Positions 12,102 to 18,943 of a DNA stretch of 40,537 bases are shown here, one piece after another. The stretch is from a virus. A program made the translations under genes and the position numbers. The notes below the pieces were generated by a model. The model made no database searches. It was not told where the DNA came from and was given only the letters and a program-made list of their open reading frames with translations. The number at the start of each line of letters is the position of its first letter. Position 1 is the stretch's first letter. Location: the IMG/VR virus record IMGVR_UViG_3300028797_000289, positions 1 to 40,537 of that record, one strand, 5' to 3'.

Positions 12102-13538
12102 AATTTAGGACATGTAACAGCGTATGCGTACGCTAAAACAAAAGGTTACACTGGTACAGCCGATGAATTCGCTGAAATGATGGCGGGCCTCCCTCAGTAT
12201 GCAACATAGGCTAGTGCTAGTGCGATTGCAGCAGCGGAGTCCGCGACAACCGCTAGTAATAAAATTGATGCTGCTGATGCTCTTATTACAGCTGCAACTA
12301 ATATTGAAAATCAAAGATTTGAAAAAAAATATACTGTAAGTAGTTCTACAAGTAGCTTTACTTTTGATCCAACTGGTTATACTTATACTAGTGGAGATAG
12401 ATTTGAAGTTTATGTAGATGGAGCAAAATTAACTGATGATGCTTATAGTAATAGCAGTGCTACGATTACTTTAGGGACGGCTGTAAGTAGTGGTACTGTT
12501 GAGATTATTTGTTATAGAGATGTGACTTTTAGTACAGATGCTACTCTTAGTATTCAAGGAGCGGCAGCTGATAGTAAAAAGACTGGGGATTAGATTTCTA
12601 ATTTAAAGGATGATTTAAGTAATATCGAAGGTATCAGTGATGATGTTAAAACCGCTTTATTGGCATGTTTTGAACATGTTGCGTGGATAGATGATGATGG
12701 ACAGGATTATTATGATGCTCTTGAATCTGCTATGAACCCAAAAACACTTTTGTCTATCAATGCTGTATTTACACAAGGGCAAAATGTTATATATGCTGAT
12801 GACGATTTAGAAACATTAAGACAGTATCTTGTGGTTACTGCAAATTATGCAGATTCTACTTCCGCCGTGGTTCTAGGGTATGTCCTCTCTGGAACTTTAA
12901 CAGAAGGAACAAGCACAATTACGGTCACATATGAAGGAAAAACTGATACGTTTACTGTTATTGTATCGGCGGCATATTGGGATTATAAATGGGATGCATC
13001 TAGTCACACTTTACCAAATGACATGACGGCAGATTCCTATGATTTTACAACAGAATCAGGGGCTTTGTATGCAAAACAGCCCAATCTTGATTTTGGCGTG
13101 ATGGGTTCCTATGAATTAGAAGTTACTTGTAAGTTCCGTAATACATATGAATCTTCTGGTGATGTTTTTTATAGTGGAAACAATTCACAATTGCAAATAC
13201 TATCAGAAGAAGTTTCAACTGGGGTATACCGTGGCATAAAACTAATAGCAAATTCTTCGCTAAATCCGGACAACCCTAAAACATACGCAGGGATTGCTGT
13301 TGGTATAAATGGAACTAATGCATATATACCCGGCGTGAATGGATCTGAGTATCACACATACAATGTAAAATGCACAAATGGGGTTTATTCACTAAATATT
13401 GACGGCGATGCGATTTCATTGACGCAAAATAACAACACAACTCAGTATCTTGATTTTACTGGTATTGTATCAGCCGTTCTGACCAATGGAATCGCATATA
13501 TGTTTATAAAATCAATAAAAATGAGGAGTGTTAGCTAA
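12099..13538 (+). CDS. Tail fibre protein with 2 in-frame TAGs.
   Basis: ATG 12099 overlaps the upstream TGA. The protein carries the ATLSIQGAAADSKKTGD fibre motif. TAGs lie at about 12208 and about 12591. It joins track ORF 12660..13538 and ends TAA, which overlaps the next ATG. Confidence 0.6.
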
Positions 13539-14596
13539 TGGGAAACATATACGATATCAATGGAAAAGTAATTATTCAGGAGGAAACTCTTGAAGATTTA
13601 TTGCCTGATAGGTTGTTGATTTGGCACGATGAATTTGACCAGCCTACGATTGACCTGACTAAATGGAAGAATGTGTATGGCGATTATCGTGGATATAACT
13701 GGAACTCAGAAGACATTATGCGTAATATATCCAGTGGCAAAGGAATGTCATTCTGGACTGCTAAAGACTATCCCAAAGAATACACGGATTTTAGCGGGGC
13801 ATATATTTGCACGAATAATCTGTTTGAATTTCGATATGGACGAATTGAGGCAAAAATACGCTTCCCGTCTGCAACTCCACACCATACTACATTTTGGACG
13901 CTAGGAGCATGTGATGATGTAATCAGCACAGGAGAGGACACAAGATATGATGAATCCAAAGGCGTGAAGTTCCCTTCGTGCGGCGAAATTGATATTGCTG
14001 AATATGACAATGGAACTGTAGGTGCAAGAATGCACTGGGATTCAAATGGATTCGATCATGATAATGGATATGCGTCTGGTGGCAATGTAGCATCACTGAC
14101 AAGTACGCCTTCAGACTGGCATATTTATGCATGTGAATGGACAGAATCATCAATAAAATTTTATGTTGATGGTGTATTAAAAGGCACATGGGATACATCA
14201 AACGCAACAGTAAACGGCTGGAATCCATTCAAGATTCCGCATTATCTTGTACTTGATTGTATTTCTGCGTTAAGCGGTACAATCAATTGGGATATTGCAA
14301 AAACAGATGTGAAATGGGTGCGTGTGTATGCTCCTGTCGGTGTGACTGAGTACATCAAAGAAACAGCTATATCCATTCCTGCAACGGCATCAATTTCTGT
14401 CGGACAAAGATACTACCTTGACCAGACTTTTACTCCTGCAAATCCATCTGACATGACGCTGAAATGGGAAAGTTATAATCCAGATATAGCAACGTGTTAC
14501 GGGGGCATGGTCATAGGTGTGTCTGCTGGAACTGCAATTATAAAAGTCACGACAAGGCATAATTGTGTTGCATTTTGTAAAGTAACTGTTTCATAA
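13538..14596 (+). CDS. Tail-associated glycoside hydrolase of family 16 (beta-glucanase/laminarinase-like) with a C-terminal Big_2 Ig-like domain; no TAG.
   Basis: The GH16 catalytic motif GEIDIAEY (E-x-D-x-x-E) is present. The C-terminal Ig-like segment reads SISVGQRYYL...IKVTTRHN. Confidence 0.65.
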   Translation: MGNIYDINGKVIIQEETLEDLLPDRLLIWHDEFDQPTIDLTKWKNVYGDYRGYNWNSEDIMRNISSGKGMSFWTAKDYPKEYTDFSGAYICTNNLFEFRYGRIEAKIRFPSATPHHTTFWTLGACDDVISTGEDTRYDESKGVKFPSCGEIDIAEYDNGTVGARMHWDSNGFDHDNGYASGGNVASLTSTPSDWHIYACEWTESSIKFYVDGVLKGTWDTSNATVNGWNPFKIPHYLVLDCISALSGTINWDIAKTDVKWVRVYAPVGVTEYIKETAISIPATASISVGQRYYLDQTFTPANPSDMTLKWESYNPDIATCYGGMVIGVSAGTAIIKVTTRHNCVAFCKVTVS

Positions 14597-14683
14597 ACTC
14601 TCTTAAAGGGGGCTTAAAATGAATAACGTTACACATATAAAGATCTTTAATACGGTAATAAAACTGATAAGGTGGTGATAGAG

Positions 14684-14926
14684 ATGAGTTATACAAAACA
14701 AACTTGGCAACCCGGAGAAGTAATTACCGCAGATAAATTGAATTATATATAGAATGGTATTGAAATGGCAACAGATAGTATAGAATATATTCAATTCTAT
14801 ATTGATAATAACGGTGATTTAATATATGAATATGAAGGGGAACCAGTTGCTAAATTTAGAATTGAAGATGGAGATTTAATTCTTTATGAAATAGGTCATA
14901 ACGTAATTATTGATTTAAACGAATAA
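14684..14926 (+). CDS. Small conserved phage protein (MSYTKQTWQPGEVITADKLNYI*NGIE...) with one TAG; paralog of 18584..18943.
   Basis: The N-terminal 25 aa align with ORF 18584..18943 (MAYTKQTWQNGDVITAEKLNHMEDGIA). The TAG aligns with Glu of the paralog. The gene ends TAA at 14924-14926. Confidence 0.5.
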
Positions 14927-18500: not shown

Positions 18501-18558
18501 AGAATTATCTGCTGAAGTCGATAAATTAAAGCAAGAAATTGAAACTTTAAAAAATTAA
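15535..18558 (+). CDS. Large tail fibre of about 1,007 codons. It has an N-terminal domain, collagen-like G-X-Y triplets, internal WLWxKT.YTY repeats, SHAEGNxTxASG repeats and a C-terminal S74-type intramolecular chaperone domain; at least 12 in-frame TAGs.
   Basis: SD AAAGGAGG sits 9 nt upstream of ATG 15535. The frame is the same as track ORF 17059..18285, and only TAG interrupts it. The C-terminus reads SDIRLK*NI*N...FDWKRTGEHQKIGFIADELE...VQELSAEVDKLKQEIETLKN, which matches endosialidase-chaperone/peptidase S74 tails. The gene ends TAA at 18556-18558. Confidence 0.6.
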
Positions 18559-18583
18559 TAATTTTTTTAAGGAGGAATAAATT

Positions 18584-18943
18584 ATGGCTTATACAAAACA
18601 AACATGGCAGAACGGTGATGTTATTACAGCTGAGAAGCTCAACCATATGGAAGATGGGATTGCCAGTGGGGGGACACTGGTTATAGGATGTACAAACAAC
18701 GATGGTAATATCGTTTTAGATAAAACATGGCAAGAAATCAATAATTTTTATTTAAATGGCGGTTCTGCTGTAATAATTTTCCCTTATGACGAAACAGATA
18801 CATATATTATGTCTGTTATAAGAGTTTATATAGATAATAATAATAGTTATAGAGTTATTGGTCTTACTGCTTCATATAATAATACAACAACTGTTTTTGT
18901 ATTTCAAGCTGATTCGGCTAGCGGATATCCATCTTATAGTTAA
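18584..18943 (+). CDS. Small conserved phage protein, paralog of 14684..14926; no TAG.
   Basis: It has the MAYTKQTWQNGDVITAEKLNHMEDGI N-terminus and an SD GGAGG. Confidence 0.55.
   Translation: MAYTKQTWQNGDVITAEKLNHMEDGIASGGTLVIGCTNNDGNIVLDKTWQEINNFYLNGGSAVIIFPYDETDTYIMSVIRVYIDNNNSYRVIGLTASYNNTTTVFVFQADSASGYPSYS

Follow-up and report, generated by a model that had tools for sequence, protein, structure and literature searches.

A truncated tyrosine recombinase gene at a module boundary in the mosaic receptor-binding region of a TAG-recoded phage

The remnant of a XerD-like tyrosine recombinase gene separates unrelated host-recognition genes in the viral DNA analyzed here (IMG/VR record IMGVR_UViG_3300028797_000289, positions 1 to 40,537; this whole stretch of 40,537 nucleotides is called the window). 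The remnant occupies positions 14933-15211 on the + strand and lies in a phage genome in which TAG is a sense codon. We consider it likely that the remnant is the dead C-terminal third of a late-operon recombinase, and that it marks a scar of recombination or deletion where two modules of a mosaic receptor-binding region meet. An original prediction, made from a standard-code reading, held that the region is the scar of site-specific exchange between duplicated tail-fibre cassettes, in the style of a shufflon, rather than the product of vertical descent. The mosaic scar is retained in our interpretation. Site specificity and the likeness to a shufflon are not, because the region contains neither repeated sites nor inverted cassettes.

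Integrase pseudogenes at the junctions of fibre modules, TAG recoding, and fibre shufflons operated by tyrosine recombinases are all already known kinds of feature, and in this sense the locus is ordinary. What is new is membership: a remnant of this recombinase family occurs in a recoded phage, and shufflons resembling the Rin system of Bifidobacterium prophages occur in uncultured phages. The locus also provides a further example of modular shuffling of receptor-binding genes, in which a recoded phage appears to have acquired a glycanase gene from a phage that uses the standard code. Possibly more useful is the group of XerD-like recombinases found between fibre and lysis genes in uncultured contigs of temperate-type phages, some of which have the gene arrangement of clear tyrosine-recombinase tail-fibre shufflons. 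Loci on other contigs are cited below by L numbers.

Remnant of a XerD-like recombinase

The remnant comprises 92 codons and a TAA stop. It matches the Pfam family Phage_integrase (PF00589) with an E-value of 7.5e-19, at profile positions 92-169 of 172 only. The box II residues HxxR, the second histidine, and the tyrosine are all kept, in segments (HPHRFRR, LLGHS, and TTYVY) that align with relatives. Full-length relatives have 330-390 amino acids and combine a SAM-like core-binding domain (PF02899/PF13495) with a complete catalytic domain. About 240 N-terminal codons are missing from the remnant, including the core-binding domain, the first catalytic arginine, and the lysine of the beta-hairpin; because these elements are absent, the remnant cannot recombine DNA.

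No ATG, GTG, or TTG is present at the 5' end of the frame, which is therefore not a complete open reading frame (ORF). Its first in-frame ATG is codon 55, and this codon is not preceded by a Shine-Dalgarno sequence. The remnant starts 7 nucleotides past the stop of a gene for an 80-amino-acid protein, in the same frame and with two TAA stops between them. The onset of homology to recombinases is abrupt, at position 14936, which is 7-10 nucleotides past that stop.

The original prediction that only a C-terminal tail is present was borne out. No N-terminal recombinase piece was detected in any frame of the window, either by tblastn with about 70 full-length relatives or by a six-frame search with hidden Markov models, and no other recombinase piece was detected in 58.8 kb of the source contig. 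(The window comes from an ENA metagenome contig of 86,062 bp, ERZ27257207 k141_7340073, of which these 58.8 kb were searched.) The same searches rule out an intact integrase in another frame or elsewhere in the sequence covered, which was one of the findings that, in combination, the original prediction had named as its refutation. The possibility that integrase homology reaches into the 80-amino-acid gene was also rejected, since the one alignment that does so (to L039) runs through two stops, is weak, and is not supported by closer relatives. The remnant is thus a true 5'-truncated piece and not part of an intact gene.

We propose that illegitimate recombination or a deletion joined a segment carrying a glycoside hydrolase gene and the 80-amino-acid gene to the AT-rich leader of a TAG-rich fibre gene. 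The remnant would mark that junction. In temperate relatives, recombinases of this type end the series of fibre genes, just before the lysis genes. Site-specific exchange is without support, and the junction is accounted for just as well by illegitimate or homologous recombination. Repeats of sequence from the 608-bp gap between the flanking genes (14927-15534) are no more frequent than those obtained with shuffled sequences. The original prediction had suggested a search for core repeats resembling attachment sites, and none were found at the other cassette boundaries or elsewhere in the window. A lysogeny module consisting of an integrase and an attP site is likewise not present, as the gene is truncated and no core is repeated.

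Several observations weigh against this interpretation. The 92-codon frame has remained open in sequence of 28% GC, for which the chance in random sequence of the same composition is roughly 1e-3, and every box II catalytic residue is intact. The inverted repeat that follows the remnant (15382-15502) is also unusual: with 121 nucleotides and 31-nucleotide arms, this hairpin is far bigger than a normal terminator, and its position 171 nucleotides downstream of the recombinase gene means that a link to recombination may exist. In addition, the order of events cannot be reconstructed, because no close relative of the phage was found. The open frame and intact box II residues imply that the truncation was recent or that the remnant is still under some selection. 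The G+C content at third codon positions (GC3) of the remnant is 0.09, which together with the open frame suggests either that the sequence was selected for a long time in an AT-rich genome and truncated recently, or that selection continues.

If the C-terminal domain were still expressed or still selected, it could function as a small protein that binds DNA or acts as a decoy, or as a patch of homology that promotes exchange of the downstream fibre module with co-resident prophages bearing the same late-operon recombinase. We judge this very unlikely. The improbably open frame is in its favor, as is the low GC3, a sign of long residence in an AT-rich genome in a sequence that still has 57-68% amino-acid identity to relatives. 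L171 contains another truncated copy, and numerous short products have been called in the family. However, the lack of a start codon, the position of the first ATG, and the two upstream TAA stops all argue against translation. Many of the short database matches lie on contigs of 2 kb or less, in which the contig end may have cut the gene, and on the longer contig of L172, the gene P0003 looks frameshifted, with overlapping calls of 244 and 103 amino acids. As for a homology patch, nucleotide identity between the remnant and its relatives is only about 70% over 150 nucleotides, so that homologous exchange would not be efficient.

Mosaic host-recognition block

The interval from 11.2 to 19.6 kb is a mosaic host-recognition block of a phage of about 86 kb, and it encodes several unrelated receptor-binding or depolymerase proteins. 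Every gene in the block lies on the + strand and has its own start. Genes were delimited by reading TAG as sense, and they agree with the calls stored with the source contig.

Downstream of the remnant, an AT-rich non-coding spacer (15212-15381, about 24% GC, with no detectable similarity to anything) and the hairpin lead to a gene for a 1007-amino-acid tail fibre (15535-18558, +) that contains 12 in-frame TAGs and is called with the same length in the source contig. This fibre is composed of collagen-like and repeated receptor-type segments, among them seven 14-amino-acid SHAEG repeats encoded by tandem 42-nucleotide repeats. Its C-terminus is an S74 intramolecular chaperone domain (PF13884, E = 1.5e-12, residues 911-963) with an SDIRLK motif, at which cleavage is predicted. 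Matches to PHROG tail fibre families run across the TAG positions. In the standard code used for the original prediction, it could not be seen that 15535-18558 is a single gene.

Upstream of the remnant, the large gene at 13538-14596 (+) had been regarded as the first of two fibre genes. Its product is actually a 352-amino-acid protein with a GH16 glycoside hydrolase domain (PF00722, E = 1.8e-10) and a C-terminal Big_2 domain (PF02368, E = 1.1e-6). The catalytic motif EIDIAE (ExDxxE) can be read in its sequence, and the protein is probably a virion-borne glycanase. The gene contains no TAG codons and has a GC3 of 0.33, compared with 0.14-0.23 for its neighbors. It is 83% identical in amino acids (77% in nucleotides) to a gene of L001, a contig of a standard-code temperate siphophage, and because of this similarity to a standard-code gene it looks like a recent import into the recoded genome. 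The L001 context downstream of GH16 differs from that in the window. The 1007-amino-acid fibre is a long-term resident of the recoded lineage, as its 12 TAGs indicate. These data support the view that the region is mosaic and did not arise by simple vertical descent.

Two genes precede the GH16 gene. The first encodes a 287-amino-acid virion or fibre protein (11239-12102, +, six in-frame TAGs) with matches to PHROG virion structural proteins and a C-terminal FYIxxNGDLI...FxIxxNGDLI motif, and it opens the late + strand block. The second encodes a 479-amino-acid fibre-like protein (12099-13538, +, two in-frame TAGs) with 46% identity to L001 6082-8085 and 41% identity to L002 8625-9992; it is homologous to the fibre gene located just before GH16 in other phages. 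The block ends with two small genes (19147-19621, +, recognized in the TAG-sense reading) and a bidirectional terminator with a perfect 16-bp stem (19625-19662), found by repeat and terminator scans, that closes the late + strand genes.

The block as a whole was not recovered from other phages. No near-identical phage was found in GenBank phage records, and a protein-mode search gave distant unannotated matches only. Searches with the GH16 protein, the fibre, a 119-amino-acid protein encoded after the fibre, and a 1915-amino-acid tail protein against IMG/VR, and against a set of 5.8 billion proteins, found relatives of individual modules (L001-L003, L093, L100, L169, L170, and L178), none of which carries the same block. 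The comparison of cassette order that the original prediction had proposed is therefore restricted to single modules in relatives. All assemblies of the window itself are identical. The ENA contig and two Logan contigs that span the entire gap at 14927-15534 are 100% identical over 944 nucleotides, and two further partial contigs also match; these are consensus assemblies, possibly from one study. Identical pieces of the window occur in the Logan assemblies of SRR10393135 and SRR10393136.

The arrangement resembles the mosaic tail-fibre regions with integrase pseudogenes of tailed phages, which reflect modular evolution through illegitimate or homologous recombination, in that unrelated receptor-binding modules are joined at gene boundaries, neighboring genes differ in composition and codon usage, and a truncated mobile-element gene sits at the junction. 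We see no essential difference from such regions; the additional element is that this junction lies in a TAG-recoded genome.

Small proteins with a shared N-terminal motif

As originally predicted, two small proteins in the block begin with the same MxYTKQTWQ sequence. The first is the 80-amino-acid protein already mentioned (14684-14926, +), which is also called with 80 amino acids in the source contig. Its limits had been misjudged, as the in-frame TAG at codon 23 was missed. The second is the 119-amino-acid protein encoded directly after the fibre gene (18584-18943, +). The two proteins match each other by BLASTP with an E-value of 7e-13, and the identity is confined to about residues 1-27, after which they are completely different. 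Their genes are 73% identical over 74 nucleotides, with a longest exact match of 15 nucleotides.

The shared motif can be written MxYxKQTW..G..ITAxKLNHxEDGI, and in the 80-amino-acid protein it reads MSYTKQTWQ...KLN. It also heads more than 300 clusters of proteins of about 110-125 amino acids that resemble the 119-amino-acid protein. Elsewhere, the N-terminus bearing the motif is fused to unrelated C-termini, namely to fibres with SHAEG repeats and S74 domains in L105 and L127 and to a Big_2/lectin-type fibre in L109. Because a variety of fibre proteins in other phages begin with the motif, we suggest that interchangeable short fibres could use this segment of about 27 residues as a docking peptide. 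In its C-terminal half, the 80-amino-acid protein repeats the C-terminal 34 residues of the 287-amino-acid protein (encoded at 11980-12102), with the pattern FYIxxNGDLI...FxIxxxGDLI. Since both of its motifs occur elsewhere in the block, the 80-amino-acid protein is a chimera.

An AlphaFold2 model of the 119-amino-acid protein (predicted local distance difference test score, 84.8) depicts a poorly ordered N-terminal segment of 30 residues with one helix, followed by a predicted compact alpha/beta C-terminal domain. No informative structural match to this confident model was found.

The occurrence of two small genes with the same 27 or so N-terminal residues, each after a large structural gene, could be taken to mean that a single cassette of fibre and small gene was duplicated in tandem and then diverged, as in the original prediction. 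We regard this as extremely improbable. The domain content of the large genes already refutes it, since GH16 with Big_2 and a collagen-like fibre with S74 belong to different families and, the two being unrelated, the region contains no duplicated cassettes. The small proteins differ fully after residue 27 or so, and the part that they share is a widespread modular N-terminus.

Tandem arrays of related genes occur in two phages that share backbone tail genes with the window. In L093 (6141-10372) and L100 (10268-12789), four or five complete MAYxKQTW paralogs are followed by a full-length unrelated integrase on the opposite strand, with 27% identity to the remnant.

A long hairpin upstream of the fibre gene

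The perfect 19-nucleotide inverted repeat with a 65-nucleotide spacer that had been noted previously is real (15391-15409 and 15475-15493), and it is larger than had been claimed. The arms extend to 31 nucleotides with 87% complementarity, yielding a potential hairpin of 121 nucleotides (15382-15502, +) with a structured interior of 59-65 nucleotides. The chance expectation for such an inverted repeat in the window is about 1e-4, and it is the strongest inverted repeat within 8.7 kb. The predicted RNA fold has a free energy of -44.4 kcal/mol (z = -6.9). A U-rich tract comes after the hairpin, whose end lies 13 nucleotides before the AAAGGAGG ribosome-binding site of the fibre gene.

We believe that the hairpin, which lies just upstream of the ribosome-binding site, probably acts at the RNA level. 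Within the transcript, it might serve as a terminator or attenuator, as a processing site, or as a stabilizing 5' structure for the fibre mRNA. It has no match among known RNAs in Rfam, even at an E-value threshold of 5. A promoter and terminator scan, which requires GC-rich stems, detected no consensus element at the hairpin.

The hairpin could instead be a DNA element, such as a miniature inverted-repeat transposable element (MITE), the end of an insertion sequence, or an attP-type site left behind with the integrase. Its length and 31-nucleotide terminal inverted repeats are in the size range of MITEs, and it adjoins a gene of the integrase family. However, the element is single-copy wherever it was sought: no further copies were found in the window, 58.8 kb of the genome, IMG/VR, 185,579 GTDB genomes, or JGI metagenomes. 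Within the window, the repeat arm occurs at its two positions only, apart from one match with three mismatches, which can be attributed to chance. The ends do not have a visible target-site duplication, and there is no tRNA-like sequence. Moreover, relatives of the recombinase are not the lysogeny integrases of their phages. We therefore consider a mobile element or attachment site highly improbable.

Relatives of the recombinase and comparison with shufflons

The full-length relatives that the original prediction had called for were found. The closest are XerD-like proteins with 57-62% identity to the remnant (L005-L008), and partial ones are present in L004 and L171. In a neighbor-joining tree of the C-terminal 92 residues, calculated without support values, the remnant groups with L171, L005, L006, L007, and L008. 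The recombinase genes of this clade are co-oriented with the late genes and come after genes for tail fibres, diversity-generating retroelements, or transglutaminase-like proteins. They are directly followed by a GC-rich terminator and then a holin gene. At least in L005, L006, and L171, a separate lambda-type integrase is encoded on the other strand, next to a repressor gene in L171.

The recombinase gene in L171 (438-930; ERZ12289768 NODE_8449) is another 5'-truncated copy, which starts with KERITY and arose independently, since its breakpoint is different. It lies between a transglutaminase-like gene and a holin gene and is followed by GTATCAAGT repeated four or five times in tandem and then by a terminator.

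More distant members of the family, at 44-52% identity to the remnant, are tail-fibre shufflon invertases. The clearest example is L078 (4435-7089; IMGVR_UViG_3300045988_111894), in which the recombinase gene is flanked by four alternative fibre C-termini. At their LNT(K/N) codons, the 11-bp site TTAAACACGAA occurs four times, twice per strand. Two of the fibre C-terminal segments are homologous (32% identity, E = 1e-17), and genes for holin and lysin follow. Six other loci (L057, L061, L079, L081, L021, and L040) have inverted repeats of 12-25 bp around the recombinase gene. Judged by these sequence features, L078 and the six other loci are clear Rin-like shufflons, in uncultured phages rather than in Bifidobacterium prophages.

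Rin is the tyrosine-recombinase tail-fibre shufflon of Bifidobacterium prophages (Mavrich et al. 2018, PMC6109161), and it has been described as the first phage-encoded invertase of the tyrosine family (PMC6109161). As with Rin, the recombinase in question is a XerD-like tyrosine recombinase whose gene adjoins small receptor-binding genes of the tail, where the structural genes end and close to the lysis genes. The enzyme also resembles Rin in lacking the lambda-type organization (PF14659/PF22022 SAM_3 and a central domain) that is exhibited by the integrase of L093. Full Rin architecture is present in L078, L057, and other distant relatives. In the window, however, the recombinase is a dead C-terminal third, and there are no rix-like repeated sites, no split into constant and variable parts, and no inverted cassettes.

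This comparison raises the question of whether the locus is a decayed Rin-like shufflon, in which the recombinase was once a fibre invertase and the arms of the hairpin are left over from its crossover sites or from a small switch that could be inverted in front of the fibre gene. Such a switch would now be locked, or would be flipped only by a recombinase acting in trans. The published precedent (PMC6109161), the shufflons of distant family members, and the location of the strongest inverted repeat in 8.7 kb just downstream of the remnant are consistent with this explanation. However, the remnant groups with the L005-L008/L171 clade, which is without flanking inverted repeats. For the L005-L008 recombinases, no convincing inverted repeats were found except for a 12-bp pair in L007, in a screen of 12-mers that is noisy in AT-rich loci. 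The spacer is only 59-65 nucleotides long, the arm sequence is unlike any site in relatives, and all assemblies have one orientation. Both small genes have their own starts and ribosome-binding sites and lie in direct orientation, and no oppositely oriented gene pieces are present from 11 to 19.6 kb. Similarly, the interval from 11.2 to 19.6 kb contains no promoterless or opposite-strand C-terminal cassettes and no minus-strand gene pieces. A set of at least two inverted crossover sites at fibre junctions, as in Rin, is not present in the window, in which the sole strong inverted repeat is the non-coding hairpin. We therefore think that descent from a Rin-like shufflon is unlikely, and prefer a scar of recombination or deletion. 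The serine invertases Gin, Cin, and Min (of Mu, P1, and p15B) also provide alternative modules of fibre and small genes by means of a recombinase. Those systems use inverted modules and an enhancer, whereas the window has a tyrosine recombinase, direct unrelated modules, and no active enzyme.

A conserved element of about 80 nucleotides (AAAAAAGGAGCCGCGCTCC...GAAAGCGCGACTCC...GCCCGTAGGC) is found upstream of recombinase genes of the L005 clade, at approximately 5160-5270 in L005, 900-985 in L006, 5150-5235 in L007, and 5190-5275 in L008. One of the four loci has changes in both partners of two of the nine predicted stem pairs. The element has no Rfam match, and it may function as a structured RNA or else as a binding site.

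A further explanation is that the remnant and hairpin are not debris, but have been retained as a unit that regulates the recoded fibre gene. The hairpin could be a switch, flipped in trans or operating at the RNA level, that gates expression of the TAG-rich fibre, or the C-terminal domain could be under selection. More generally, the L005-type late-operon XerD-like recombinases, which have a conserved RNA-like element upstream and no obvious inverted sites, could serve phages in a way that has not been described and that is neither integration nor inversion of the Rin type. We rate this explanation as decidedly unlikely.

TAG recoding and genomic context

All of the criteria that we applied identify the phage as TAG-recoded. 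A suppressor tRNA with anticodon CUA was detected by ARAGORN at 24306-24381 (-); its acceptor end is U1-A72, and it would let the in-frame TAG codons of fibre genes be read. When TAG is treated as sense, ORFs with 100 codons or more add up to 47 kb instead of 31 kb, and fragments are joined into the 1915-amino-acid tail protein (eight TAGs) and the 1007-amino-acid fibre. Homologues and PHROG families align straight across the TAG positions, and the residues opposite TAG in standard-code homologues are mostly glutamate (13), lysine (4), and glutamine (2). In-frame TAGs occur throughout the window, for example at 4784-10531 (-) and 15535-18558 (+).

The suppressor tRNA and the concentration of in-frame TAGs in late and structural genes are shared with TAG-recoded gut phages (Borges et al., bioRxiv 10.1101/2021.08.26.457843; phAss-1, PMC10607447), which are the context for this locus rather than the finding itself. 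Most of the genes that were mis-delimited in the original prediction were so because the reading was done in the standard code. The lesson for annotation is that such a reading splits the 1007-amino-acid fibre gene of a TAG-recoded phage and creates apparent "cassettes."

Other features of the window lie beyond the host-recognition block. A 491-amino-acid DUF2828/DUF7788 protein is encoded at 19662-21137 by a gene with a GC3 of 0.37 and no TAG. This gene and the GH16 gene stand out by composition from their neighbors, which have GC3 values of 0.12-0.24. An RNA island at 21566-30635 (-) contains 22-24 tRNA genes, including that of the suppressor tRNA, as well as a tmRNA (24461-24690) and a ROOL RNA (25502-26127, 275.6 bits). 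Farther downstream, and with Pfam labels taken from the source-contig annotation, are genes for an 822-amino-acid protein with a major-vault-protein shoulder domain (PF11978; 36032-38500, -) and a SprT-like protein (39070-39576, -).

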